Below are positions 947 to 40,629 of a stretch of 64,000 nucleotides of DNA, piece by piece. The stretch covers positions 768,001 to 832,000 of the forward strand of contig CAVXWP010000009.1 of assembly GCA_963765495.1 (NCBI GenBank), read 5' to 3'. Made by a program: the position numbers and the translations under genes. A model generated the notes under the pieces. It had not been told where the DNA came from. It searched no databases and was given only the letters and a program-made list of their open reading frames with translations. Every line of letters starts with the position of its first letter. Position 1 is the first letter of the stretch. This stretch comes from Blastocatellia bacterium. Its GTDB lineage: Bacteria; Acidobacteriota; Blastocatellia; UBA7656.

Positions 947-1858
947 ATGATGAAATCTCTCTTGCTTTATCTGTCAGGTAGCGAAGGTTTCAAGAAGTTT
1001 CTTACGCGTTTCAAATCTTTCAATAACGTCACCCATCGGTTCGTAGCGGGCGAAGAGCTTGCGGACGCGGTCGAAGCCGTCCGGGAACTCAACCGCAGGA
1101 GTATCTCCGCATCATTCGATCATCTGGGCGAATCAATAACGGTCGAAGCCGAGACACGCGACGAGGTAGACGAATACACGCATATCTTCGACAGCATAAA
1201 CGAACATGCGCTCGATTCAAACGCATCGGTCAAGCTGACTCAACTCGGACTCGACATCGATAAAGAGCTTTGCTATCAAAACACCCGCGCCATCGTTGAG
1301 GCCGCCGCCCGCTATAAGAGTTTTGTCCGCATCGACATGGAAGACTCGCCCAGAACCGATGCTACGCTTGAGATATTCACCCGCCTGCGACCGGAGTTTG
1401 ACAATGTCGGAATAGTTGTTCAGTCATACCTCTATCGCACCGAAAAAGACATAGAAAACCTGTTGAAACTGGGCGCGAGGATCCGCCTGTGCAAAGGCGC
1501 ATACGACGAACCTGAATCCGTAGCCTTTCCCAACAAAGAAGACGTGGACGCCAACTACGTAAAGCTGATGAAGATGCTGGTTGTATCAGGGATCTATCAC
1601 GGCATAGCCACGCACGATGAGAACATGATCGCGGCTACGAAGCAGTTTGTCGAAGAACGCAAGATAGATCGCGACAGGTTTGAGTTTCAGATGCTTTATG
1701 GAATCAGACGCGATTTACAGGAGCAACTCGTAGCCGATGGCTATCGCATACGCGTCTATGTGCCTTACGGGCGCTTCTGGTATCCGTACTTCATGCGGCG
1801 ACTGGCCGAACGCCCCGCCAATCTCTGGTTCGTCCTGAAGAATATTATGAAAGGGTGA
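947..1858 (+). CDS. Monofunctional proline dehydrogenase
   Basis: Motifs RFVAGE, SVKLTQLGL, RIDME, RLCKGAY, IATHD, EFQMLYG, YFMRRLAERPAN. Confidence 0.95.
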   Translation: MMKSLLLYLSGSEGFKKFLTRFKSFNNVTHRFVAGEELADAVEAVRELNRRSISASFDHLGESITVEAETRDEVDEYTHIFDSINEHALDSNASVKLTQLGLDIDKELCYQNTRAIVEAAARYKSFVRIDMEDSPRTDATLEIFTRLRPEFDNVGIVVQSYLYRTEKDIENLLKLGARIRLCKGAYDEPESVAFPNKEDVDANYVKLMKMLVVSGIYHGIATHDENMIAATKQFVEERKIDRDRFEFQMLYGIRRDLQEQLVADGYRIRVYVPYGRFWYPYFMRRLAERPANLWFVLKNIMKG

Positions 1859-1873
1859 GCGAAGGGATTTCAG

Positions 1874-2010
1874 AAGGGATGAGGGATGAGGGATGAGGGA
1901 TGAGGGATGAAAAGGACTGTAACGTCACATCTCAATTAAATGGGGAGAGGGAATACCGGGATGTTACCAGATGGTCCTTTTCATCCCTCATCCCTCATCC
2001 CTCATCCCTT
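1874..2010. repeat. Hairpin with heptamer-repeat arms: (GGGATGA)5-AAAGGAC ... GTCCTTT-(TCATCCC)4
   Basis: Read directly. Lies between convergent genes; same left arm at 40515-40556. Confidence 0.9.
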
Positions 2011-2015
2011 AAGAA

Positions 2016-3350
2016 TTAGGTTCCGATTCTCATCTCGAAAAGCGGATTGCTTAGCGAAGCGCTCGCGGTTTTTGCTGCGGCACGCTTCTGTTGGGCTTTT
2101 GGTTTGGCCGAGGCTTCCTTTATTACCTCAACGGCTTTCTTTAGTTGAACGTCTTCGACAGGTTGCTCTGGCGGCTTGGGCACGGTGGCCTGCGGCTGCT
2201 CGCCTTTATCATCGGCGGCCGAATCATCGTCGTCATCGCCGTCGGGCAGGACGACTTCCGCTTCCACCGGGCGGTCTACTTTGATTGATGGAGTGACCGG
2301 CTCTTCCATGAAAGGCTTGCCGGTGGCGGGCGCGTATTTGGCCGTCGTGATCAGCAGCGCCCCGCCGTCTGAAAGCGAGAAGAGTTGCTGGTCAGACCCC
2401 GCGCCGAAAGTGCGCTCGCCGACGACATCGCCGCGTTTCTGTTCGAGAACTGCCGCTGCGATGATCTCTGCCGGTCCAGCCGTAGAGCGATCCGTTACGA
2501 CGACCAGCGGCCCGTTGAATACGACCTTGCTCTCATCGGCGTTAAAGGCTTTCGCCTCCTTGCCGCCTTTGCCCACGATGCGCGCAAGCGGCCCCGAGCC
2601 TATGAAGAGGTTGGCAACAGCCACGCCTTCTTCGATCTTTCCGTTAGCCGCGCCGCGCAGGTCGAGCACAATCTTTTGAGCGCCCTTCGAGATCAGATCG
2701 TTTAGCTGCGATTTCACTTCGCCCGCCTTGCCTTCGACCATGCTCGTGACCTTTATATAGCCAATTCCCGGCTCTTCCACACGCGCTTCGATTGCGGGCT
2801 GAACTATCTTTGCGCGAGGCACCATGATCTTGTGCGACTGTCCCTGATGGAGTATGCGAACCTCGATCGAAGTTCCGGCCTGCCCGCTCAATAGTTGCTC
2901 GATGTCATACAGGCTCAGGTCTCTTGACGGCACTTTGCCTACATATTCTATGAAGTCGCCTTCGCGTATGCCTGCCTGCTCGGCGGGCGTTCCTTTCAAG
3001 ACCGAAACTACGTAAGCGTACCCGGCCACCTTCGACACTATCATGCCGGTCTGGGCGAGATTGGCTTTCGGGTCATACTGCTTGACCTGTTCGGGTGTCA
3101 GGTAGGCGCTGTAAGGATCAAGCCCTTCGGCAAGCCCGCGAAGGCTGCCGATTCTCACCTTTTCCAGGTCGGGCTGGTCAACATAATCGCGGATGATGTG
3201 GCTGAGCACTTCATCAAAGGTTGTTAATTGAGCGTATTGACTTCCGCGCGCCACCGCCTGGCCGGACTTCGACATAAAGCTGCCGACTATGGCATAAAAG
3301 GCGATGACCGTTGAGAAAACGACGATGGCGATTTTGGTTTTGAACTGCAT
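2016..3350 (-). CDS. S41 family C-terminal processing peptidase with PDZ domain
   Basis: LDPYSAYL, PDZ segment, GYIKV, VLDLRG, VVGERTFG. Start chosen at ATG 3350 after AAGGAG. Catalytic motifs look degenerate (TAGPAE, TFGAG instead of SASASE, TFGKG). Confidence 0.85.
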   Translation of the reverse strand: MQFKTKIAIVVFSTVIAFYAIVGSFMSKSGQAVARGSQYAQLTTFDEVLSHIIRDYVDQPDLEKVRIGSLRGLAEGLDPYSAYLTPEQVKQYDPKANLAQTGMIVSKVAGYAYVVSVLKGTPAEQAGIREGDFIEYVGKVPSRDLSLYDIEQLLSGQAGTSIEVRILHQGQSHKIMVPRAKIVQPAIEARVEEPGIGYIKVTSMVEGKAGEVKSQLNDLISKGAQKIVLDLRGAANGKIEEGVAVANLFIGSGPLARIVGKGGKEAKAFNADESKVVFNGPLVVVTDRSTAGPAEIIAAAVLEQKRGDVVGERTFGAGSDQQLFSLSDGGALLITTAKYAPATGKPFMEEPVTPSIKVDRPVEAEVVLPDGDDDDDSAADDKGEQPQATVPKPPEQPVEDVQLKKAVEVIKEASAKPKAQQKRAAAKTASASLSNPLFEMRIGT

Positions 3351-7315: not shown

Positions 7316-8455
7316 TCACCGAACAGTCTTCGGTCGTTCGCTGAGTCGCACCGGCAGGGTCAGGCGCTCGCTTTGACGCAACAATTCCAGTTGGACTGTC
7401 TGCCCGGGTTGCTTGTTCTGGAGAACGTGCTGAAGGTCGTCGTTTGATTTGATAGGTTGTTTGTCAATCGCAAGCAGCACGTCGCCCAGTTTTTCCAGAG
7501 CCATTCCATAAACCGTATCGCGCACCTCTGATCCGCGAACGCCCGCCGCCGCCGCGCCGCTGCCGCGATAGACATCGCCGATTATCAATCCCTCTTCAAC
7601 CGGCAAGTTTAGTCTTCGAGCCATCCTTCGGTTGAGCGGAATCAGCGAAACGCCAAGCCACGGGTGCGCGACATAGCCCTTAGAGATCAGATCGGGAATG
7701 ATCTTTTTGGCCGTGTCAACCGGGATGGCAAAGCCTATGCCCACGCTTCCACCCGACGGGCTGTATATCGCCGTATTGATGCCTATCAATTCGCCCTTCG
7801 CATTCAACAGAGGTCCGCCGGAATTGCCGGGATTGATCGAGGCATCGGTCTGTATTGCGCCCTCGATTGTGCGGCGCGAACTGGAATCGCGCAACGGTCG
7901 CTCGAGCCCGCTGATTATCCCTGTCGTCAGGGTTCGCTGAAGCCCGAAGGGATTGCCGATAGCCAGCACCTTCTGGCCTACTTCCAACCCCTGCGATGTG
8001 CCGAGCTTGACGGCAGTCAATCGGTCTCGCGGGGCCTTTACCTGTATGACCGCCAGATCGTTGTCGGGGTCTGTGCCTATGAGGGTTCCCGGATATTTAT
8101 CATCTCCGATCATCACCTCAAGCTGCTCGGCTCCCTGCACGACGTGGTTGTTTGTGAGGATATGGCCTTCCTGATCAATTATAGAACCCGAGCCGCTGCC
8201 TTCCTGCGGGTATACGCCGAACCATGTCTCAGTGTAGCTGCGGCTTGTGATGTTGACGACGCCGGGGCTGACCGTCCGATATATGTCGATGTTGTTCTGT
8301 TCGTCGGTTGCAACCGAGGGGTCGGCAATGGCGACAGGTTCTACGCTTGCGCCGCGCCGCTCCAATCCGAATTGCGCGAGCGTCACAAGCACCCCCGCGA
8401 TCACAGCCGAAAAAACTGCCAGCGCCGTAAGCTGCTTACCCGTGACCCGATACAT
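7316..8455 (-). CDS. HtrA/DegP-family trypsin-like serine protease with PDZ domain
   Basis: GSGSII, LTNNHVV, DLAVI, QTDASINPGNSGGPL. Start at ATG 8455 after AAGGAGG. Confidence 0.93.
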   Translation of the reverse strand: MYRVTGKQLTALAVFSAVIAGVLVTLAQFGLERRGASVEPVAIADPSVATDEQNNIDIYRTVSPGVVNITSRSYTETWFGVYPQEGSGSGSIIDQEGHILTNNHVVQGAEQLEVMIGDDKYPGTLIGTDPDNDLAVIQVKAPRDRLTAVKLGTSQGLEVGQKVLAIGNPFGLQRTLTTGIISGLERPLRDSSSRRTIEGAIQTDASINPGNSGGPLLNAKGELIGINTAIYSPSGGSVGIGFAIPVDTAKKIIPDLISKGYVAHPWLGVSLIPLNRRMARRLNLPVEEGLIIGDVYRGSGAAAAGVRGSEVRDTVYGMALEKLGDVLLAIDKQPIKSNDDLQHVLQNKQPGQTVQLELLRQSERLTLPVRLSERPKTVR

Positions 8456-8874
8456 AACTGCTTCCTCCTTTGAATCCATCTTTTCATTCAACCGGATGGC
8501 AATCTGCTCTTTCACCGATTGGTCTTTCCATCCCGACATCAATTATAACGCCTCTCCCCGAATTCTCGCTGCATCATTTTGCCTTCCCGAAGTTCACCCC
8601 TTGCTCATACGTGACTGAATTTTATCGGTCATTTCATTCACTTTGACCGAAAGCCGAGACGGCCGAAGGTACCCTGGTGAAGAGAGATATATTCCATATG
8701 AAAGAAGATTAAACGAGCAAAGAAAATCGCTCAGAGACAACTCGGTCGCGGTTTGGTGGGAGCTAAACCATTGCGTCTACAGGGTATATCTTATTTCGAG
8801 GCGAGGGCGAAGAAACGGTTTTTTGCGTATTGGACCGATCACGGCGCGCTTACCCGAAGGGGATGGCCGTTATT

Positions 8875-9007: not shown

Positions 9008-11011
9008 ATGAAGAAGAATCAAGTCACAAATCAGAGACCGGGAGCCTTCAAGAGTTTTCTTATAGTAGCCTTGATGATATTGCTTCCCTTTTCGGGAATA
9101 ATATCAGGAGGGTTTGGAGCCAGCGTCTTAGCTCAAACTGGTTCCAGAAAACCGATTTCAACCAACGGCAACCCTCAAAACGGTGGTTCCAGGCCCCCGT
9201 CCGGCAATCAACCCGACACCAAGATTTCGCGTGACCTGAGAGTTTCGATAAACAATGACGCATCAAAGATGATGCGCGTAATCGTTCAGACCCAGACGCC
9301 TCCACAGAAAACAAAAGACTTTCTCACGGCTCTCAGTCGCACTGGCGGAACGATTCGCAAGAGCTTTACCCGGATCAATGCTGCGGTCGTAGAGATTCCT
9401 GCCGCCTCGGTTGATTCTCTTCTCTCTCGCACCGATATCAAGTTCATCTCTCCAGACAGACCTACCCAGGTATCGGGCCACGTAGAGGTTACGACCGGAA
9501 CCAGTCTGGCTCGGTCCTACGGCACACCCACTACAGGCGTGATTGACGGGCACGGCATAGGCATAGCGGTTCTGGACTCGGGCATCTACTCTGCCCACGA
9601 TTCTCTTCACTCTTCCACCCTGCAATCGAGAGTCGTGGCAAACGTAGATTTCACGGGCGAAGGAAGAACCGATGATCCGTACGGGCACGGCGCTCACGTG
9701 GCGACGCTGGCGGCGGGCAACAATGAGATTTCCGGCGGCGCATACACCGGGACCGCTCCGGCGGCCAACTTAATCAATGTAAGAGTGCTCGACTCTCAAG
9801 GACGGGGCACATCCTCGGCCCTGCTGAGCGGCATAGACTGGTGCATTCAAAACAAAAATACCTATAACATCAGAGTGATGAACCTGAGCCTGGGCACCGT
9901 GGCTGTTGATTCCTACGTCAACGACCCGATTTGTCTTGCCGTGCGTCAGGCGGTCGAAGCAGGCATAGTGGTTTGTGTGGCGGCGGGAAACCTCGGAAAA
10001 GATGAGAACGGAAACAAGATTTTCGGAGCCATTCACTCGCCGGGCATCGAGCCCTCGGTGATAACGGTCGGAGCAGCAAACACAAAAGGCACTGACTCTC
10101 GCAGCGACGACACGGTAGCGACTTATAGTTCCTGCGGGCCGACCAGAGGTTATTACACGGACAGCTACGGCGAAAAACATTACGACAACCTTATCAAACC
10201 GGACCTCATTGCGCCGGGCAACAAGCTTATCTCCGCCAAGTCCCCAAACAATTATCTGGTAACCACGCATCCCGAACTGGATGCGCTGGTGAGCCCGCTT
10301 TCCACCCGCAGCATGATGACCATGAGCGGGACCTCGATGGCAACGCCAGTCGTGAGCGGGGTGGTGGCGCTGATGTTGCAGAGGAACCCCGCGCTGACTC
10401 CGAATATGGTCAAGGCGATCCTCGAATATACGGCGCAGCCGCTGGCCGGATTCAGCACCATCGAGCAGGGAGCGGGGCTCTTGAACGTTGAAGGCTCTGT
10501 TCGACTCGCAGGGCTCGTCAGACCGGATTTTGCCGGGTTGCCCGCAGGCTCGCCCTTACTTACCGGCACGGCCCCCACCGAAGCGACTACGATTGCAAAC
10601 GAGACCTTTGTCTGGGGCGGCGGAATCATTCAGAAATGGAATTTCCTGACCGGGTCTAATCTGATAACCCAGTGCCAGGGGATTTACGGCACAGGCGTAA
10701 TCCTTTCGGATGGAGTAATACTTTCGAACGGAAGCTTCGTGCCCGACGGAGTATTGCTCTCGCAAGGCGTGATTCTTTCAAACGGAGTTATTCTCTCGGA
10801 TGGAACCACGTTGGGGAGCGGTCCTCTGCTGGCCGATTCCGTGTTGCTTGCGGATGGGACGATGTTTGCCGACGGAGTAATGTTAAGCGATGGAGTGCTC
10901 ATCGCTGACAGCATACTATCGGATACGACCGCCGCTCAGAGCGCCCTGTCCACACCCTACAATGGTGATGACGGACCGAGCTTAGTTCCCGTGCCGGACG
11001 GAAATCATTGA
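9008..11011 (+). CDS. Secreted S8 subtilase (AprX-like) with C-terminal hexapeptide repeats
   Basis: Triad motifs VLDSG, HGAHVA, GTSMATP; propeptide-like region; GVILSD-type repeats at the C-terminus. Confidence 0.92.
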   Translation: MKKNQVTNQRPGAFKSFLIVALMILLPFSGIISGGFGASVLAQTGSRKPISTNGNPQNGGSRPPSGNQPDTKISRDLRVSINNDASKMMRVIVQTQTPPQKTKDFLTALSRTGGTIRKSFTRINAAVVEIPAASVDSLLSRTDIKFISPDRPTQVSGHVEVTTGTSLARSYGTPTTGVIDGHGIGIAVLDSGIYSAHDSLHSSTLQSRVVANVDFTGEGRTDDPYGHGAHVATLAAGNNEISGGAYTGTAPAANLINVRVLDSQGRGTSSALLSGIDWCIQNKNTYNIRVMNLSLGTVAVDSYVNDPICLAVRQAVEAGIVVCVAAGNLGKDENGNKIFGAIHSPGIEPSVITVGAANTKGTDSRSDDTVATYSSCGPTRGYYTDSYGEKHYDNLIKPDLIAPGNKLISAKSPNNYLVTTHPELDALVSPLSTRSMMTMSGTSMATPVVSGVVALMLQRNPALTPNMVKAILEYTAQPLAGFSTIEQGAGLLNVEGSVRLAGLVRPDFAGLPAGSPLLTGTAPTEATTIANETFVWGGGIIQKWNFLTGSNLITQCQGIYGTGVILSDGVILSNGSFVPDGVLLSQGVILSNGVILSDGTTLGSGPLLADSVLLADGTMFADGVMLSDGVLIADSILSDTTAAQSALSTPYNGDDGPSLVPVPDGNH

Positions 11012-28125: not shown

Positions 28126-28203
28126 TTAGACAGGATTAACAAGATTAGATTGGATTGACAGGATTCTCTTTTAATCTTTGGAAATCCTGTTAATCCTGTC
28201 TAA
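28126..28203. repeat. Hairpin with nonamer-repeat arms (GACAGGATT-like)
   Basis: TTAGACAGGATTAACAAGATT ... AATCCTGTTAATCCTGTCTAA (20/21 match) between convergent operons. Confidence 0.85.
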
Positions 28204-28257: not shown

Positions 28258-30276
28258 TCAACGAATTCCCGTTCGGAAGTCGCCCTGCATCACGGTTTGC
28301 CCGAGCAGGTCCTGTATCTCGATGTGGCGAATGGAGTCTATCTGCCCGGGCAAGGGCGGGAGCGGCTGTCCCACCCCGTCATTTGCAAACAGGACCCGCG
28401 CATATCCGAATCGAGCGGCTACCAGCCCGATTGTCACGCCGTCGGCCACTACGCGATAAGTCTCGCCCGAATTAAGGCCCTCGACCTCTATGCCTAAACG
28501 CTCGCGGTCGGATTCAATGCTTATCCGCGCCCGGCCTCCGGCATCCGCGAGCCCGAGCGTCGACGCGAGCCGCGCTTCTTTCTCAAGCGATCTGATAACA
28601 GGCTCCGGCCCCGGGCCATCTGTAGAGAAATCGCCTTGAAGGATGATTCTGCCCAGCGCGTCTCGCAACTCGACACGTTTTATAGTAGTCAGAGGATCGA
28701 GCGGCGCGGGCAGCGGAGCCTCTCCCGGAGCGGTCGAAAATTTGAATTTGAGACCGCCCAGACTGGCCGATAAATCCGCGCCTACTTCCCTGTCGTCTAC
28801 AAACAGATCATACGTAGAGCGGACGTTTAGGCCGATGGCTTCGAGGACGAATTCCTGCGTGCTTCCGGTGACGGTTATAGAGGCGCGGCCTCGCCCGCTG
28901 CCAACCGACGGGCCGCGCATAAGCTCAAGTTCGATGTGATTGAACGAAGGGCGGTCCTGAATAAGCTGGGCCTGGAGCGCGGCAAGCGGGTCGATACGCC
29001 CTTTGCCAAGCTTTCCGGCATATTCGGGATTGATGTCGTCAAGGTTTACGGCAGTGCCTGTTATGAGCCGGTCTACATCGGGAAATCTTGAATCCGCCGA
29101 GAGCAGGAGCGCGGCTTCTGCCGAAGCGAACGGCGCGGCGAAAGAGGTCCCGCTCCACCTCGCATAATTGCTCGGATCATCAGCGGGATCGGTGCCCGGA
29201 TACGCGCTTATGAGCTTGGTGCCGGGAGCGCACACGTCTACGTGTTTGCCGAAGTTTGAAAATTCGGATTTCCTGCCGTCCAGATTGATCGCGGCCACGG
29301 CTATGACATCGGGTGAGCTTGAAGGGTACATAGCGGGTTTTGCCGTATTGTCGTTCCCGACGGCGGCTACCATAACTATTCCGCGCTCCTTTGCATAATT
29401 TATCGCGTCTTCGAGCAGGGGCGATACTTCGGGCGAGCCGAGGCTGAGGTTGATCACATTCGCGCCGTGGTCCACCGCATATTTGATGGCGGCGGCTACC
29501 GTAAAAGCATCGCTCATGCCTTCGGGCGGGAAGGCGCGGACGGGGAGGATGCGGCAATCGGGCGCGAGCATATTGATGAGCCCGCCGATAAATGTGCCGT
29601 GCCCGGCGACGGTCGTTTCCGGGTCGTCGGCCTCTTCCGAGGGGTCGTTGTCGTTGTCTACGAAATCCCACCCGCGAGCGTCGTCTACGAGCCCGTCGCC
29701 GTCGTTATCAATCCCGTCTCCTTCGATGTCGGCATTGCGCCGTTCATCTTTCCAGATTTGACCGGCGATCTGGGGGTGAGCGAAGTTTATTCCCGTATCA
29801 ATAAGCGCGACTACTATATTTGCGCCTCGTGAACGAATGCTCACCTGTTCAAGCGCGAGCAGATCGAACAGCGCCTGTTGCGAGTTGTAATCAAGCAGAC
29901 TGAGGCCCGGAGAGGCGACGCCGTCCGGGAAGCTGAAGGTTGATCGCCCAAAGAGGCTCGGGCTTGTGATAACGGGGTTGAGCGAGGCGCTCAAAACGTC
30001 GCGGTCTTTGCTGAGTTTCTTGCGCCATTTCTTCTCCTTCTTCGCTTTTGGGGTCAGGAGTCTATAGAAATTGGTCCCATAAAGCCGCTCGATGGTCGTG
30101 GTGCCAAAACGCGCGTTTATTGCTTCAATCGAAGCGCCCGCCTTTATTTCGACCACGACTTCGCCCCTGCGGACATCCTTGTTGATTTCATCCGGCTGAC
30201 CTTCGGTTTGAGCCATCAGGGGCGTGGCCCCACCCAAAAGCAATATCAAAACAAGAACCGCATTTATCAGCTTCAT
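28258..30276 (-). CDS. Secreted S8 subtilase with duplicated C-terminal beta-rich domain
   Basis: Signal peptide; IDTG, HGTFIGG, WSGTSFAAP; DNDGDGLVDD calcium loop; two similar C-terminal units, each ending in QGDF. Confidence 0.9.
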   Translation of the reverse strand: MKLINAVLVLILLLGGATPLMAQTEGQPDEINKDVRRGEVVVEIKAGASIEAINARFGTTTIERLYGTNFYRLLTPKAKKEKKWRKKLSKDRDVLSASLNPVITSPSLFGRSTFSFPDGVASPGLSLLDYNSQQALFDLLALEQVSIRSRGANIVVALIDTGINFAHPQIAGQIWKDERRNADIEGDGIDNDGDGLVDDARGWDFVDNDNDPSEEADDPETTVAGHGTFIGGLINMLAPDCRILPVRAFPPEGMSDAFTVAAAIKYAVDHGANVINLSLGSPEVSPLLEDAINYAKERGIVMVAAVGNDNTAKPAMYPSSSPDVIAVAAINLDGRKSEFSNFGKHVDVCAPGTKLISAYPGTDPADDPSNYARWSGTSFAAPFASAEAALLLSADSRFPDVDRLITGTAVNLDDINPEYAGKLGKGRIDPLAALQAQLIQDRPSFNHIELELMRGPSVGSGRGRASITVTGSTQEFVLEAIGLNVRSTYDLFVDDREVGADLSASLGGLKFKFSTAPGEAPLPAPLDPLTTIKRVELRDALGRIILQGDFSTDGPGPEPVIRSLEKEARLASTLGLADAGGRARISIESDRERLGIEVEGLNSGETYRVVADGVTIGLVAARFGYARVLFANDGVGQPLPPLPGQIDSIRHIEIQDLLGQTVMQGDFRTGIR

Positions 30277-30288
30277 AATAACCTCGCA

Positions 30289-30404
30289 GCGATACGTGAT
30301 ACGTGATACGCGATACGTGATGCGTGATATGTGAAATTAGCACTGACCTGCAAAACAGTCGTTAACCTTAAAATTACGAATCACGTATCACGCATCGCGC
30401 ATCA
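30289..30404. repeat. Hairpin with CGTGAT(A/G) heptamer arms
   Basis: About 6 units GCGATACGTGATACGTGATACGCGATACGTGATGCGTGAT; opposing arm ATCACGTATCACGCATCGCGCATCA includes the CHAT gene stop codon. Confidence 0.85.
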
Positions 30405-33290
30405 ATTTGGGTTGCCCATCAAGACAAACGGAGCCCAGTAGTAAGGATGCCCATACATGTCTTTGAGGGCAAGTTGCGCCGCCCTGAGCGCCGCTCGTTT
30501 CGTAGCGCCTTCGCGCAAATGCCCGTACATCTCTTGCATAAATTCGGCCGTAGCCGTGTCGTTTGCCGCCCACAGGCTTGCGACAAGCGAAGGCGCTCCC
30601 GCATAGAGGAAGCCCCGCACGAGCCCGTGAAGCTCATCACCCGGAAAGACCATGTTTACTCCCGTGTGGCAGGCCGAAAGCGTGACCATCTCGGCCTTTA
30701 ATTCAAGCTCTAACAGACTGTAAAAATTCAGAGGCGAATCGGCGAGCTTCAGAAATGAAAACATGGGATTGTCCCGCCTGAAATATCCGTGCGAAGCCAG
30801 ATGAAGAAAACGCGCTCGCGGCGCGTGCTTCATGAGGTTGTCGCGTGTGGCATCGTCTCCGACAAGAGTCACAGCGCCGGGGAAGATTTTTCTGAGGGCC
30901 GAGACTTCAGCCTCTATGCTGGGCGTTTCCGGGTGCGCTACGCCAAGAGCCACCATATCGCATTTGAGATTCGAGATTTGAGATTCGAGATTTGAGCTTG
31001 CCCGAGCATCCGCGCTGATCTGATTGCCCCGGTCGCGGCAGAGCTTTAGCACGGTTGCGCTTGGCGCGTATGAAATTTCAAAGCGGTCAATCAGAAAACC
31101 GCGCCGGTCGAGCAGCGCGTGAAACGGCACATAATGCAGCGCCCCGTGCGGGATGATAATCAAGCGGTCGCCTTCTATGTAGGGTTCGAGCGGCGCAAAG
31201 ACCGCCTCAGATAACCGTATCAGATGCTGGTTGGTTGCGTGGTTGAGATGTTCGAAATGCTCGTCGGCAAACTCCGACCCGTAATTGAATTTCTCAAGCT
31301 GAAACCTGAGCCCGGCAAGCATCTTTTCCACCTCGCCCTTTGAGGCTACCTCACGCACTACCCTGATGCAGTCGCGGCCTACGATAAAGGCTGAGACTAC
31401 ATTTCCCGTTGTGAAGTATTCGATAGCCGTCTCGTCGGCTTCAAGCGAGCTTCGCAAATCCGATACGGAAGCCGCCTGCATGCGCTGCATCTCGGCAAAC
31501 TGAGAGCCGTCGGCCTCCATGCGGCGGAATAGCTCGGCTATACGGCGTTCGCAGTGCTCGACCTGGCGAGCATATCGCCCCGCAACGTGTGCCCTGCGCT
31601 GATTGCCCTTTTCATCTTCGAGTCTCGCCTGAGAGCTATACCAGTTCAAGTTTTCAATCAACGTGAGCAATCGCGTCCGTGCCTCGTCTTCGACAGGTCG
31701 GCGAGCGGTGGATTGCGGGTCGCGCAAGTATCTGGCGAGCAGGTCGGCGAGCGCCCGAGATTTCGACGATTCGACCAGACGGAATGCCTCTTCGACAAGC
31801 GGTTCCGTGCTTTGATCGAGGCACGCGCCGATAGCGTCTTCATACACCCCGATCTTATCGCGCAGGAAAGTAGCCTTGAATTCATCAGCGGCGATTCCGC
31901 CTCGCATCTGCTCTACGGTTCGAACCGCGATTTGAAATCTTTCGAGAGCCGCACGTATCTGCCCCCGGTCCCTCTCTATCTTTCCGATCAGATGGTGACA
32001 TTGATATGTGACCGAGGGGACGAGTTGCGCTGTCGCTCGGCCAAGCGCGGCGCGGGCCTTGCGAGCCGCTTTTTTACTGTCGCCCGCGAGGTATGCCGCC
32101 CGCGCCCCAAGCAACCTGGAGTAGGCGGCTCGGCCCGGGAGTTTCTGCCGCGAAAAGACTCTGAGCGCCGCGCCCGCCCGCGCGGCTGCCTCTGTGTGGT
32201 CGCCTCGCCGCAGAGAAAGCTCCGACAGATAAGTGTCTACTGTGGCGGCGAATGTGTTGTTGCGGTTGGCGGCAAACACCTCTCTTGCGCTTTCGAGAAA
32301 TAGGCCGGCCTGATCCAACTGTGCCAGCCCCATTGCCGCGAGCGCCCGCACGACGAGGGCCTGCGCGGATTCGTAAGGCGTGCCGATCTGGCTAAATTGA
32401 TCGTGCGCGAGCGCGGCGTGTTCGCTCGCGTCGTCGAATGAATTGAGCGCAAGCAGAATCTCGGCTATTTCGAGATTGCACCACGCCACAAGCCACTGGC
32501 TTCCGAACCCTGCTAGTTGCTCTCGCACGTTATAGTACCCGGCGAGCGCAGCGTTGTAATTTCCTCTGAGGAATTGAAGATAAGCGATCTTGGAGCGAGC
32601 CTGCGCCGCAAGCAGCGTCTGTCCCGCGTCTTCAAGTACAGAGGCGGCCTGCTCAAGCAAAGCCATTGCCTCAAGCGGGCGATCCATCTCAGCAAATATA
32701 TTTGAGCGATTGCCGTCAACGAGCGCGCACATGGTCGCCTCGTCTTTCGATTCCAGAATTTCGCGGGCCGTGTCGTAATGCGCGAGCGCCTTCTTATACC
32801 TGTCGAGCCGGTAATAGATATTGCCTACGTGGGTTTCAAGCTGGGCGAGATGGACCGGTTCGTTTTTCGCAAGCGCGCGTCTTGCCGTTCGGGCAAGGCG
32901 CAATGCGTCCTTGTAGCGGCCCATCTGTGTAAGGGCATCCACCTGCTGTTTTTGAAATATAGCCGCCTGCGTCCGAAGCCTTGCCGCAAGGAGTGCATCC
33001 ACCGCGCTTTCGAAAAGATTGTTTGCTTCGGTGTGGCGACCCGACAGGTGAAGCACGCGAGCGCGTCCGGCTCTGGCAAAGGCGGTCGAGACCGGATTGT
33101 TTTCTACTGCCGCGAGCTGATTTATGCGGTCGGCGAGGCGGGAGGCTGCGGCGAGGTCGCGGCCCGCAAGATGATCCACTTCCGATTTGAGGGCAGCAAA
33201 CACCTCTCGGCCGGCGCTCGGGCCATGCTCGCGCATAAACGCCTTCAAGTCCTCGGCGTTCATCAGCCTGTTGACGAGTTCGCTACTCAA
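30402..33290 (-). CDS. TPR-CHAT caspase-like protease
   Basis: Long TPR array; ESSKSRAL; IIPHGALHYVPFHAL; catalytic His (LHLASHG) and Cys (TLSACHTG); HPYYWAPF. Confidence 0.93.
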   Translation of the reverse strand: MSSELVNRLMNAEDLKAFMREHGPSAGREVFAALKSEVDHLAGRDLAAASRLADRINQLAAVENNPVSTAFARAGRARVLHLSGRHTEANNLFESAVDALLAARLRTQAAIFQKQQVDALTQMGRYKDALRLARTARRALAKNEPVHLAQLETHVGNIYYRLDRYKKALAHYDTAREILESKDEATMCALVDGNRSNIFAEMDRPLEAMALLEQAASVLEDAGQTLLAAQARSKIAYLQFLRGNYNAALAGYYNVREQLAGFGSQWLVAWCNLEIAEILLALNSFDDASEHAALAHDQFSQIGTPYESAQALVVRALAAMGLAQLDQAGLFLESAREVFAANRNNTFAATVDTYLSELSLRRGDHTEAAARAGAALRVFSRQKLPGRAAYSRLLGARAAYLAGDSKKAARKARAALGRATAQLVPSVTYQCHHLIGKIERDRGQIRAALERFQIAVRTVEQMRGGIAADEFKATFLRDKIGVYEDAIGACLDQSTEPLVEEAFRLVESSKSRALADLLARYLRDPQSTARRPVEDEARTRLLTLIENLNWYSSQARLEDEKGNQRRAHVAGRYARQVEHCERRIAELFRRMEADGSQFAEMQRMQAASVSDLRSSLEADETAIEYFTTGNVVSAFIVGRDCIRVVREVASKGEVEKMLAGLRFQLEKFNYGSEFADEHFEHLNHATNQHLIRLSEAVFAPLEPYIEGDRLIIIPHGALHYVPFHALLDRRGFLIDRFEISYAPSATVLKLCRDRGNQISADARASSNLESQISNLKCDMVALGVAHPETPSIEAEVSALRKIFPGAVTLVGDDATRDNLMKHAPRARFLHLASHGYFRRDNPMFSFLKLADSPLNFYSLLELELKAEMVTLSACHTGVNMVFPGDELHGLVRGFLYAGAPSLVASLWAANDTATAEFMQEMYGHLREGATKRAALRAAQLALKDMYGHPYYWAPFVLMGNPN

Positions 33291-33498
33291 GCTTTGGCTC
33301 GACTTTCGTCGAAGTGTTCAGGGCAAAATTGCAAGCCCCGGTAGAGCGGATTTGCAAGGACATAAATTCAAGTCCTCCCCCGGTTGTCGCGCCTGCGTCT
33401 CCCCAGCGCCGCGCCACATCTGAAAGTCCGCTCATCCGGGGCCTGTCTCCGGTTATTCACCGTCTCCGCCCGTGCGCTCAGGCGGGCCGAAAAAGCGA

Positions 33499-34116
33499 TC
33501 AACCTATCGGCAGATTCTCAATCATCACCGACGTTTCGCGGGTCTCTATTTGCAGGTCATAGCTGCCGCTTTCAATCGAAGAGAAGGCGAACTCTCCGAG
33601 ATCGTTTGTAAAGGTCGAGCGAATCCCTTCTTCACTTCCTGAAAGAGCGATTTCAAGCCCGGCGACGGATTCGAATTTGAACTCGCCTTCCTTGAGTATC
33701 TGCCCGCTCAATTCGGCCGTCTGTTGCCCCGTAGAGACTATCTGTAAATCAATGCTGAAGCTGCCCGCTCGAAATAGCATTTGATGGTCGGCGGATGCGG
33801 TCAATCGCACTCCCGAAAGGGCCGACCCTGCGAGACTGTCGAATATGAGCGAAGCCACTATGCGGCTGACGCGCTCGGTGAAGCGCGAAGGTCGGCTCGC
33901 GGTCTCAAATAATTTAACGGCGCGTTTCAAGACCCAGGGCGGCGGCTCAATGCTATCGTCGCTTGCGGCGATCACACTGACGCGCTCGTACCAGTCGCGG
34001 TCTGCGGCGCATTGCGCACAGCCCGAAACCAGATGCGCCGCGACCGCTTCGGCCAAAGCGCCGGACAGATGTCCGTCGAGGTAATCAATCAATTTTTCGA
34101 ATCCGGGGCAGTTCAT
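33499..34116 (-). CDS. zf-HC2 zinc-binding anti-sigma-like protein with C-terminal carboxypeptidase-regulatory-like domain
   Basis: MNC...LIDYLDG...AHLVSGCAQC; C-terminal LSGQI...TNDLGEFAFSSIESGSYDLQI; no TM helix apparent. Confidence 0.8.
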   Translation of the reverse strand: MNCPGFEKLIDYLDGHLSGALAEAVAAHLVSGCAQCAADRDWYERVSVIAASDDSIEPPPWVLKRAVKLFETASRPSRFTERVSRIVASLIFDSLAGSALSGVRLTASADHQMLFRAGSFSIDLQIVSTGQQTAELSGQILKEGEFKFESVAGLEIALSGSEEGIRSTFTNDLGEFAFSSIESGSYDLQIETRETSVMIENLPIG

Positions 34117-34261
34117 ATTCTTTCGCTCCTCTGCTGCCGAAGCCCTCTATCTGACCGCTGTAATAGATTGTTTGTTCTAAGTGTGACCGCGCAGTTCAGG
34201 TAATAGAGGGCCGGGAATACGGAAAAATACATGCGACGGCAAATTTTTATCCCGTGGGTTC

Positions 34262-34358
34262 CGTGATGCGATCACATGATTCGTGATTCGTGACTATACA
34301 GGTAGATCGCAGGTTCAAGAAAACTTGCAAGCCTGCTAAATCACGCATCACGCATCAC
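34262..34358. repeat. Degenerate CGTGAT-heptamer hairpin
   Basis: TGATTCGTGATTCGTGACT ... AATCACGCATCACGCATCAC immediately after the sigma gene stop. Confidence 0.75.
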
Positions 34359-34360
34359 TT

Positions 34361-34978
34361 TCAAATTTTTCCATCGAGCGATTTCTTCAGCTTTTCAAGA
34401 CACCTTGCCCGCGTCGGTCCCACAGAGGCTACGGGCATACGCATGCGGCGGGCTATATCGCCGTAGCTCAGGTTATCTTTCTCGTAAAAGAGCATCGTGA
34501 TGAGTCTGCGGCATCGGTCGGGCAAGGCCGTGATCGCCTGACGGATGATCTGTTGTTGTTCGATCTCTTCGCGCTGCTCGTCGGCCAGAGGCGCATCCGA
34601 AGCCAGTTCGCTCAACCGATCCCGTGGTTGATCCGGGTCGTGTCGCGAGGGCTGGCCCTCGCGCCGCCATCGGGCCGCCACGCGCCAGCATTCCCGCGTA
34701 GCCGTAGTCATCAGCCATGAACTTATCTTCTCGTGTTTGCGCAGAGTCGGGAGCCTTTCTATCATCACAAGACAGACGGATTGAAACACATCCGCCGCGT
34801 CAACGGTCGAAAACCCCATCTTTATCGGGATCGAATAGATCAATCGCTGATACCGAAATATCAGAGCCTCCCACGCCGCCGAATCGCGCTCAAGACATGC
34901 CGCAACGATTTCGGAGTCGCTCAACTGGGCGAAATCAACACTGCTCTCCGGTTTGACCTGATTGCTCATACCATTCAT
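34361..34978 (-). CDS. ECF sigma-70 family factor
   Basis: AWEALIFRYQRLIYSI, DAADVFQ, WLMTTATR, LSYGDIARRMRMPVASVGPTRARCLEKL. Start uncertain (34969 or 34978). Confidence 0.9.
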   Translation of the reverse strand: MNGMSNQVKPESSVDFAQLSDSEIVAACLERDSAAWEALIFRYQRLIYSIPIKMGFSTVDAADVFQSVCLVMIERLPTLRKHEKISSWLMTTATRECWRVAARWRREGQPSRHDPDQPRDRLSELASDAPLADEQREEIEQQQIIRQAITALPDRCRRLITMLFYEKDNLSYGDIARRMRMPVASVGPTRARCLEKLKKSLDGKI

Positions 34979-35202
34979 TTGCGCCGGGTTTGGGAGAGGG
35001 CGGCAAGAGGGCGAACTTTGCTTATCAAAGTGCCCCGTCGTTTTTGTAACACACCGATTCTGAGTTCGCAAGAATGTTGAATCTTCGCCGCCGGGATTCC
35101 CACGCTTCTTGATTCGCGCGCTTCTTGATTCGCGCGCTTCTTTGTTCAAATTCATTTCTGCCGGGCTCTTGCGGTATTATCTCGATATAAGGTTTAGAGG
35201 CT

Positions 35203-39391: not shown

Positions 39392-40528
39392 ATGAAGATA
39401 ACCATCATTGGAGGCGGACCTTCGGGCCTTTACTTCGCCGTCTTAATGAAAAAGCTCGACCCGGCTCACGAGATTACCCTGATAGAAAGAGACGGACCCA
39501 ACGACACATTCGGCTGGGGAATAGTCTTTTCCGATCAGACATTCTCTTATCTGGAAACGAGCGACCGCCAGTCGTTCGCCGAAATCATCAGAAGCTGCGA
39601 GACGTGGGATAACGTAGACGTGGTCCACCGCGACGAGCGAATCACGATTCGCGGCAACAGGTTTTCAGGCATCGCGCGACTGGCCTTTCTGCAAATCCTG
39701 CATCGTCGTTGCCGCGAACTTGGCATCGACCTGCGATTCAATACAAACGTCACCAGTGTTGAGGAACTGAGAGACGCGGATTTGCTTATCGGCGCAGACG
39801 GGGCAAACAGCCTTGTGCGGCGCACCTTTGAGGCGGCGTTTCAACCTACGCTTGAAACGGGAAAGAACAAATACATCTGGCTTGGAACGCACAGATTGTT
39901 TCACGGTCTGACGCTCACCTTCCGCGAATCTGAGGCGGGCCTGTTCATAGCTCATTCCTACAAGTTCGACAAGACAACCAGCACCTTCATAATCGAGTGC
40001 GGCGAAGATGTCTGGAAGAAGGCCGCGCTCGACGAGATGACGGATCAGGAGACCTGCCGTTATCTGGCCCGTGTCTTTGAGAAAGACCTTGAAGGGCACG
40101 CGTTGCTGTCGAACAACTTCGTCAGGTGGCTGAATTTTTTGCTGGTCAAAAATAAACGATGGCACCACAAAAACGTGGTCTTGCTTGGGGACGCGCTGCA
40201 CACGGCTCATTTTTCGATAGGTTCAGGCACAAAGCTGGCCCTGGAAGATTCCATCGCTCTGGCCCGATGCTTTGAAGCGAATTCGAGTGTTGAAGAGTCG
40301 CTCGCCCAGTTTGAGCGCACCAGAAAACCTGTCATTGACGAGTATCAGGAGGCAGCCATCTCAAGCCTTCTGGCATTCGAGAACGCCGAGGAAGATATGC
40401 ACCTCGACCCCATTCCTTTTGCTTATAAACTCATGACCAGAAGCAAGAAGATCAATTACGAAAAACTGAAGCGGAGAGACCCCGGCTTTATCGCCGCCTA
40501 CGATAAATGGGAGAGGGATGAGGGATGA
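39392..40528 (+). CDS. FAD-dependent monooxygenase (anthraniloyl-CoA monooxygenase/salicylyl-CoA hydroxylase N-terminal type)
   Basis: IIGGGPSGLY, DTFGWGIVFSD, GDALHTAHFSIGSGTKLALED. Confidence 0.88.
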   Translation: MKITIIGGGPSGLYFAVLMKKLDPAHEITLIERDGPNDTFGWGIVFSDQTFSYLETSDRQSFAEIIRSCETWDNVDVVHRDERITIRGNRFSGIARLAFLQILHRRCRELGIDLRFNTNVTSVEELRDADLLIGADGANSLVRRTFEAAFQPTLETGKNKYIWLGTHRLFHGLTLTFRESEAGLFIAHSYKFDKTTSTFIIECGEDVWKKAALDEMTDQETCRYLARVFEKDLEGHALLSNNFVRWLNFLLVKNKRWHHKNVVLLGDALHTAHFSIGSGTKLALEDSIALARCFEANSSVEESLAQFERTRKPVIDEYQEAAISSLLAFENAEEDMHLDPIPFAYKLMTRSKKINYEKLKRRDPGFIAAYDKWERDEG

Positions 40529-40629
40529 GGGATGAGGGATGAGGGATGAAAAGGACCGTAAAGATAGATTTGATGATAAAGGATACCGCATTAATCGGTG
40601 TGTCTCCTGACAATCCTTTTCATCCCTCA
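40515..40629. repeat. Second (GGGATGA)5-AAAGGAC hairpin element
   Basis: Same left arm as 1876-1917; short right arm TCCTTTTCATCCCTCA; supplies the monooxygenase stop codon. Confidence 0.88.

Follow-up and report, generated by a model that had tools for sequence, protein, structure and literature searches.

A conserved ECF54-like cassette of a sigma factor, a putative zinc anti-sigma factor, a TPR-CHAT protease and a subtilase in Acidobacteriota

A 64,000-nucleotide stretch of a Blastocatellia bacterium genome (contig CAVXWP010000009.1, positions 768,001–832,000; hereafter the window) was found to contain four open reading frames (ORFs) in a row at 28258–35155, all on the minus strand, which encode a sigma factor of the extracytoplasmic function (ECF) type, an anti-sigma-like protein named here ASF, a TPR-CHAT protease and an S8 subtilase. 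Sequence comparison indicated an ECF54-like, self-contained cassette for sigma signalling, of which the genome contains three paralogous copies including this one. The new elements are the assignment of the protein encoded at position +1 from the sigma gene to the class-I zinc anti-sigma factors, a predicted and co-conserved surface on which it would dock to the CHAT protein, a putative promoter and one candidate target operon outside the cassette. With these, what was a neighbourhood known from bioinformatics becomes a circuit open to testing with a few constructs. The source genome (G000; 7.3 Mb in 17 contigs) has closest relatives that carry the label Blastocatellia, phylum Acidobacteriota.

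The four consecutive same-strand genes that an earlier note on this DNA had read from the sequence were borne out by the ORF calls and by Pfam and NCBIfam domains. The sigma gene (34361–34978) encodes 205 amino acids and its product matched Sigma70_r2 (3.4e-8) and Sigma70_r4_2 (2.7e-5) in Pfam, and the superfamily model TIGR02937 in NCBIfam (1.9e-22; 79.7 bits, above the cut-off of 42.9). With sigma-2 and sigma-4 regions only, it is an ECF (group IV) sigma-70 factor. Although the ORF can be extended to 35155, the alignment of homologues begins only at about residue 15 of the 205-residue form and the N-terminal extension is not shared by them, which counts against the longer form. It is followed by the genes for ASF (33499–34116; 205 amino acids), the TPR-CHAT protease (30402–33290; 962 amino acids from a TTG start) and the S8 subtilase (28258–30276; 672 amino acids).

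When the four proteins were used as tblastn queries, three complete cassettes with identical gene order were found in the genome of the window, designated C9 (the window copy), C15 and C2. The C15 and C2 proteins were 57–64% (sigma), 52–53% (ASF), 57–63% (CHAT) and 45–47% (S8) identical to those of the window. The flanks of the three cassettes have nothing in common and hold housekeeping genes, namely trpF-like, deacetylase, MFS and acyltransferase genes at one copy, SSB and copper ATPase genes at another, and genes for another ECF sigma factor and an M1 peptidase at the remaining one. An unrelated ECF sigma gene was noted directly upstream of the C15 cassette (L009:6180–6761). Outside this genome, 21 near loci were collected from an ASF-alignment scan with one genome per species. 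All four genes were present in the same order in 19 of these, the other two loci stopping at a contig edge before the CHAT gene, and the order was the same in 19 of the 19 loci long enough to judge. A relative of the sigma gene adjoined the relative of ASF in every near locus (21/21). In 15 of the 21, every gene was nearest to one and the same of the three paralogues, and the differences in the six mixed loci were mostly a few percentage points or less; thus, the cassettes behave as units. One near locus (L016, CAZJQQ010000069.1) is labelled “uncultured Clostridia bacterium” and its cassette is 53–62% identical to the Blastocatellia ones; this label probably reflects a binning or labelling problem.

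A more distant search was carried out with a 50-sequence ASF profile against 401 Acidobacteriota genomes (E ≤ 1e-8). Matches were obtained in 99 genomes spread over several classes of the phylum, mostly generic zinc-finger matches, and by our own count those spanning the beta-sandwich of ASF came from 25 genomes. Twenty distant Acidobacteriota loci were fetched (ASF identity 26–32%), and a sigma gene was adjacent in all 20, a CHAT gene was present in 18 and an S8 gene in 15, with several gene orders such as sigma-CHAT-ASF-S8 and CHAT-S8-sigma-ASF. The copy numbers of ASF and full-length CHAT genes go together, being three and three in G000, and seven and at least six in G291, a 4.7-Mb genome of the same class in which the two genes mostly adjoin each other across several contigs and which shows a marked expansion of the cassette. 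The ASF family comprised 593 representative clusters at E ≤ 1e-10, and the ESM Atlas clusters of ASF relatives fell in Chloroflexota, Armatimonadota and Acidobacteriota, which are treated as leads only. The neighbourhood check that the earlier note had proposed therefore came out in its favour for the 19 of 21 near loci with all four genes linked, and showed the genes grouped, in shuffled orders, in distant Acidobacteriota. These comparisons of sequence indicate that the linkage is far beyond chance and that the four genes form a real conserved unit. Chance adjacency as an explanation was ruled out by the three paralogous cassettes together with the near and distant loci.

The nature of ASF was examined by structure modelling and family profiles. 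The AlphaFold2 (AF2) model (predicted local distance difference test score, pLDDT, of 89) contains helices at 6–13, 19–30, 34–52 and 60–74, a linker at 75–83 modelled at low confidence and a beta-sandwich at 84–204. The family profile reached the solved anti-sigma domains of RsiW (7.8e-6), the DdvA N-terminus (6.7e-5), ChrR (1.4e-3) and RslA (1.7e-3) in the PDB, and the sandwich matched NOMO-type and CarboxypepD_reg-type domains. A Foldseek search of the PDB with the model gave no match at E ≤ 0.001, ChrR being matched weakly. The residues H28, C33 and C36 of the putative zinc site were invariant in 50 of 50 family members, and position 3 was occupied by Cys in 35 of the 50 and by His in 11. 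The spacing of these residues (H-x4-C-x2-C) differs from the canonical zinc anti-sigma motif H-x3-C-x2-C. In the sandwich, D93, R104, G138, Q139 and F176 were invariant in all 50 sequences, down to 27% identity, and residues 71–84 around the linker were variable across the family. Neither a transmembrane segment nor a signal peptide was seen in ASF by eye. The modelled helical domain, the Cys/His-His-Cys-Cys site and the adjoining ECF sigma gene place ASF among the class I zinc anti-sigma domain proteins. Taken together, sequence and model indicate that ASF is a soluble cytoplasmic class-I zinc anti-sigma factor (residues 1–74) with a family-specific C-terminal CarboxypepD_reg-like sandwich, and that it would bind the adjoining sigma factor.

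Most of what the earlier note had said of this protein, that it is a soluble anti-sigma factor with a beta-sandwich, agrees with these results. Its zf-HC2 domain holds for the family and not for the window copy, which gave no Pfam zf-HC2 match at E ≤ 0.01 and reached CarboxypepD_reg only, weakly; among the 50 family members, zf-HC2 was matched by 13 and CarboxypepD_reg by 38. The Ser/Gly/Ala-rich segment (~94–110) that it took for an interdomain linker was modelled as a loop within the sandwich domain. The ChrR/SigE pair of Rhodobacter sphaeroides (PDB 2q1z, 2z2s) shows the same arrangement of an N-terminal zinc anti-sigma domain, a C-terminal beta-rich domain, a cytoplasmic location and an adjacent ECF sigma gene. 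However, the C-terminal domain is a cupin in ChrR and a CarboxypepD_reg-like sandwich in ASF, and ASF, unlike the ChrR-type anti-sigma factors, has a genetically linked protease partner.

That partner matched the CHAT domain in Pfam (PF12770; 9.8e-64, 216 bits against a cut-off of 24) as well as TPR_12, and its AF2 model (pLDDT 79) showed about 11 TPR pairs (24–464), a helical linker and the CHAT domain at ~620–960. The putative catalytic dyad H834/C874 was invariant in 22 of 22 homologues; the intact His/Cys dyad assigned earlier to the 962-residue protein was hence retained, and a CHAT domain with a catalytic His and Cys indicates a protease of the CHAT type in clan CD. The nearest solved folds were human separase, Csx29 and DdvA, at 12–15% identity, the match to Csx29 (8eey_B) having an E-value of 3.3e-14 at 15% identity. 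A transmembrane segment or signal peptide was not seen by eye. These features support a cytoplasmic protein of the separase/Craspase/DdvA architecture with an intact dyad. A 14-nt tandem repeat of 2.5 copies was also observed inside the gene (30962–30996), corresponding to about residues 768–775 in a region of low-confidence fold.

The possibility of a direct interaction between these two proteins was assessed by folding CHAT 104–962 with ASF 75–205. The docking score was 0.61 (0.61, 0.61 and 0.60 in the separate runs), and the best of three controls gave 0.00. In calibration, 116 of 157 solved complexes attained this score, as did 2 of 215 mismatched pairs. The runs had at least 46% of contacts in common, and the pLDDT of the partners was at least 74. 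The confident interface joined helices at CHAT 659–688 with ASF 91–94, 110–114, 121–125, 137–148 and 173–175. It included the invariant residues F663, Q664, E666, K667, F668, G671 and F679 on the CHAT side, and on the ASF side the invariant D93, G138 and Q139 together with the near-invariant Q112, D123 and G174. Sequence searches of the PDB found no like complex, so the predictor is unlikely to have reproduced a structure seen in training. The face of the sandwich with the highest conservation in ASF (D93, Q112, D123, G138, Q139 and G174-E175) is thus predicted to dock on two invariant CHAT helices (659–688) beside the protease domain, and ASF, in the model, would bridge the sigma factor and the protease. 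The direct contact between CHAT and anti-sigma factor envisaged in the earlier note was in this way predicted by the complex model, which supports binding, short of demonstrating it.

The intergenic regions were searched for promoter signatures. An ECF-type promoter-like element, TGTATTTTT-N14-CTCTATTACC, is located at 34199–34231 on the minus strand and precedes the start of ASF by about 80 nt. Its general form is TGTAyTTTT-N14-yTCyA. All 24 of 24 loci contained exactly one copy, placed right behind the sigma stop codon and ahead of the following gene, and facing ASF-CHAT(-S8). A position weight matrix (PWM) made from these sites and run over the 7.3-Mb genome gave its highest matches at C4:281275 (34.5 bits), the C15 cassette (33.9 bits) and the C9 cassette (32.7 bits). 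The next match was at 23.2 bits, and the lower matches between 21.8 and 23.2 bits included C8:609941 before a YceI-like gene and C1:1117381 near a DUF1385 gene. Strict patterns of the C2 type found no second site in this genome. The subtype pattern of the window lineage gave 2, 2, 2, 1 and 0 sites in five genomes and 0 for the reversed control, and three of three non-module sites, from three genomes, lay ~80–280 nt upstream of orthologous DUF1800 genes (64–65% identity). In the genome of the window this operon (G000:C4:281278–285531; L032:4004–8256), with the site at 281278–281309, encodes in order a DUF1800 protein, a DUF1501 protein with a twin-arginine (Tat) signal and a protein that has a CxxCH motif and is hydrophobic in an N-terminal segment. 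The position of the site suggests that the DUF1800/DUF1501 operon is one regulon member outside the cassette, directed to the envelope.

Upstream of the sigma genes themselves, an extended -10-like sequence, TGnTAnnnT, was present at 19 of 24 loci, where shuffled sequences would give 4.2. A simple sigma-70 scan called no promoter upstream of the sigma gene of the window, where TTGCGA-N17-TACAAA was read from the sequence. An element, TTGCGAAC-N12-GTGTGyTACA, lies upstream of this gene at 35043–35071 on the minus strand; it is kept in four loci of the window lineage (M9, L012, L013 and L015) and was not called by the sigma-70 consensus scan. In addition, a fifth gene that directly follows the ECF-type promoter was observed between the sigma and ASF genes in 6 of the 21 near loci (L012, L013, L015 at 1819–3081, L016, L027 and L029), five of which have most genes nearest to the cassette of the window. 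Its product of ~350–490 amino acids has a signal peptide, tandem repeats of ~60 amino acids and a CusF_Ec/DUF5666-like match, and is split into two ORFs in L029. Tblastn found no copy of this gene in the genome of the window.

This gene set corresponds to a group already known from sigma factor classification. The genomic context of ECF54 reportedly goes back to Huang et al. in 2015. As described in supplementary file 1 of a later classification (Casas-Pastor et al. 2021 NAR), ECF54 is 100% actinobacterial. Its +1 position is always taken by a CarboxypepD_reg protein, and further neighbours are a subtilase as well as CHAT and TPR proteins; the predicted promoter is GTATCAG / CTCC, and a “lack of putative AS factor” is noted. 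The four parts are the same here (ECF sigma, +1 CarboxypepD_reg protein, subtilase and TPR/CHAT), and their positions vary in both. The promoter sequence is similar but not identical (GTAyTTT / CTCy here); it lies before the sigma gene in the ECF54 description and after it in our loci. The cassettes described here are from Acidobacteriota (Blastocatellia and other classes) and not from Actinobacteria, and their +1 protein is by sequence and model a zinc anti-sigma factor, whereas no anti-sigma factor is reported in the ECF54 description. By its neighbourhood the cassette is of the ECF54 kind, a likeness to the published description, and differs from it in lying outside Actinobacteria. Since the gene set matches the published context, this is a known neighbourhood now found in another phylum, and calling it an uncharacterised system, as in the earlier note, was an overstatement. 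Literature searches returned no experiment on an ECF54-type cassette and only papers on Craspase and DdvA and classifications. For ECF54, a 2022 review proposed control by proteolysis without an anti-sigma factor (PMC8999054), so that CHAT and/or the subtilase would act on the sigma factor directly or control its stability. This proposal is stated in that review and in the Casas-Pastor supplement, and the sigma ORF of the window with its possible extension to 35155 would suit it. However, profile and model both identify an anti-sigma domain in the +1 protein, a sigma factor in the cytoplasm would not be encountered by a subtilase that carries a signal peptide, and the extension is not common to the homologues. 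Direct action on sigma is therefore considered very unlikely for these cassettes.

A bridging role of ASF, which would hold both the sigma factor and CHAT and be cut by activated CHAT, is given about an even chance. At rest, ASF would hold the sigma factor by its zinc-binding helical domain and the protease by its sandwich. CHAT would become active once the TPR array senses a signal in the cytoplasm, to which oxidation of the zinc site may add, and would cut ASF in a flexible segment, candidates being the variable linker 75–83 and the loop 94–109 with the invariant R104. The anti-sigma remnant would then be degraded and the sigma factor freed. The free sigma factor would transcribe new ASF and CHAT as feedback, the envelope-directed DUF1800/DUF1501 operon and probably the subtilase. 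Cleavage of ASF by CHAT is plausible but inferred. The narrower version, a cytoplasmic three-protein switch in which CHAT is held on the ASF sandwich and a TPR ligand triggers a cut at the G-x-R104 loop or in the adjacent linker, is possible and we hold it tentatively.

Several observations weigh against this bridging and cleavage scheme. Sigma and ASF genes occur without a neighbouring CHAT gene in G041 and G057 (one genus), whose genomes have a full-length CHAT orthologue elsewhere, and S8 is absent from 5 of the 20 distant loci. The gaps between CHAT and S8 contain the sigma-70-like extended -10 TGnTAnnnT in 9 of 22 cases against 2.8 expected from shuffles, so S8 may also be transcribed alone. 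The C2 cassette's own promoter site reached only 14.5 bits with the PWM, and use of the ECF-type promoter by the sigma factor is suggested by position, geometry and conservation. The modelled complex comprised neither CHAT 1–103 nor the zinc domain of ASF. Its confident contacts do not reach H834/C874 and do not include R104, and it places neither R104 nor the ASF linker in the active site. More generally, the scheme is built on sequence, structure models and comparison, and its cleavage, binding and transcription steps are predicted for every member.

The position of the predicted contacts, beside the active site and not inside it, would also agree with another arrangement, in which ASF is a redox or metal sensor of the RsrA/ChrR kind that frees the sigma factor uncut, its sandwich is a securin-like inhibitor or tether of CHAT, and CHAT and S8 are outputs, CHAT cleaving other targets. 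The conserved zinc ligands and the profile matches to ChrR and RslA are in line with such a sensor, as is the ECF-type promoter upstream of ASF-CHAT, which would put CHAT in the regulon; oxidation of the zinc domain is moreover discussed for DdvA in the paper describing that protein (PMC11506125). Against this, some relatives of ASF, such as P0249, have lost the Cys ligands and kept the sandwich, this arrangement assigns no function to the flexible linker or to the invariant, exposed R104, and nothing points to other CHAT substrates. We regard the uncut sensor as doubtful. The bridging scheme gives both the linker and R104 a place as candidate sites of the cut.

Bridging by ASF and cleavage by CHAT would have two counterparts among known systems. 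DdvA of Myxococcus xanthus joins a zinc anti-sigma domain, by way of a membrane helix, to a TPR-CHAT in the periplasm, and release of the sigma factor by self-cleavage has been proposed; DdvA/DdvS is described there as regulator of a defence island (PMC11506125). DdvA (PDB 8rlz, 8rot, 8rw5) and the cassette share the zinc anti-sigma domain and a separase/Craspase-type TPR-CHAT with a His/Cys dyad, the ASF profile matching the DdvA N-terminus as given above and the CHAT model matching DdvA chains. According to the same description, DdvA is a single transmembrane polypeptide with a dimeric periplasmic TPR-CHAT that is without a three-helix motif, and it needs RseP. In contrast, the cassette has two genes, with no transmembrane helix seen by eye, for two separate cytoplasmic proteins, and so falls outside the single-polypeptide DdvA type; the two would be joined by a sandwich with which DdvA is not described. 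No defence island is present here, but a subtilase is.

In Craspase (Cas7-11/Csx29/Csx30/CASP-sigma), Csx29 cleaves Csx30, the inhibitor of CASP-sigma (PMC10028731). By analogy, a TPR-CHAT protease of similar fold is set against the inhibitor of an ECF-type sigma factor in both. However, the window has no Cas7-11 and no CRISPR RNA (crRNA), and ASF is a class-I zinc anti-sigma factor unrelated to Csx30. The Csx29 model NF041237 scored 49.9 bits on the CHAT protein of the window, below its cut-off of 300, and no Csx30 chain was among the 18 PDB matches of the ASF profile at E ≤ 1. No CRISPR-like array and no Rfam match was found in the window, and none of its 42 longest ORFs matched a Cas or CRISPR model in PADLOC. 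The absence of Cas genes and arrays that the earlier note had stated thus holds for the window, and the term Craspase-like describes an analogy and not membership. As a whole, the interpretation in that note was upheld in part, for the conserved unit, the anti-sigma identity, the CHAT architecture and dyad and the predicted contact; it gave way on Craspase membership and novelty, and its cleavage of the anti-sigma factor is plausible.

The parallel with Craspase and with a regulator of a defence island raises the question of a role in conflict or against phages, as a Craspase analogue without CRISPR whose TPR-CHAT senses an invader and turns on a defence regulon. Multiplication of the modules within genomes, to three in G000 and seven in G291, would suit such a role. 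The surroundings do not: all three copies in G000 have unrelated housekeeping flanks, the sigma, ASF and CHAT proteins had no PADLOC match and S8 matched a generic subtilase model only. The 15 of 21 loci nearest to one paralogue in all genes fit inheritance as whole units, and the sole regulon member found outside the cassette is the envelope operon. A defence role is accordingly judged improbable, and the defence-island reading in particular was set aside for lack of contextual support from flanks and PADLOC. If CHAT does act on ASF as proposed, the cassette would be a counterpart of the Craspase and DdvA circuits that stands alone and works independently of CRISPR, and possibly their forerunner; as the ECF54-type cassette it would occur in several phyla. 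The subtilase and DUF1800/DUF1501 in its regulon would offer a first functional handle on the two large families DUF1800 and DUF1501. The analysis also connects Craspase, DdvA and ECF54, three cases studied separately, through one common theme in which an ECF sigma factor would be controlled by a TPR-CHAT protease, and adds to its range the Acidobacteriota, a soil phylum that is abundant and little studied.

The last gene of the cassette encodes a subtilase with matches to Peptidase_S8 (PF00082; 5.5e-43, 147.8 bits) and to the fervidolysin N-prodomain (PF22148). Its layout comprises a typical signal peptide, which was read by eye and agrees with the earlier description, a fervidolysin-type propeptide, the catalytic domain and ~230 C-terminal amino acids without a family match. 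The residues D160, H226, S378 and N308 were invariant in 21 of 21 sequences, and the Asp/His/Ser triad in S8 order together with the family match indicates a member of peptidase family S8. Downstream of S8, an inverted repeat with 21-nt arms that are 95% complementary (28126–28203) is a candidate terminator common to S8 and the convergent gene. A second S8 subtilase (667 amino acids) is encoded in the window about 0.5 kb from an opposite-strand gene for a protease-like protein (7316–8542 and 9008–11011). The protease-like domain of the latter matches the RT-Protease_XI models of PADLOC, and the pair is unrelated to the cassette.

Tandem heptamers (GATACGT, TGATGCG, AGGGATG and GGGATGA) were found between genes at 30289–30404, 34262–34358, 1875–1910 and 40509–40549, and at the first two of these positions they form long inverted repeats. 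The one at 30289–30404 consists of GATACGT heptamers and lies between CHAT and S8. The repeat at 34262–34358, read from the sequence on the minus strand directly after the sigma stop, possibly acts as a terminator or insulator; the terminator scan does not list it. Related loci contain analogous heptamer palindromes with other units, for example CTGAGTG in L012 and GAAGCCA in L019, and from their sequences these repeats look like a lineage-wide class of intergenic repeat.

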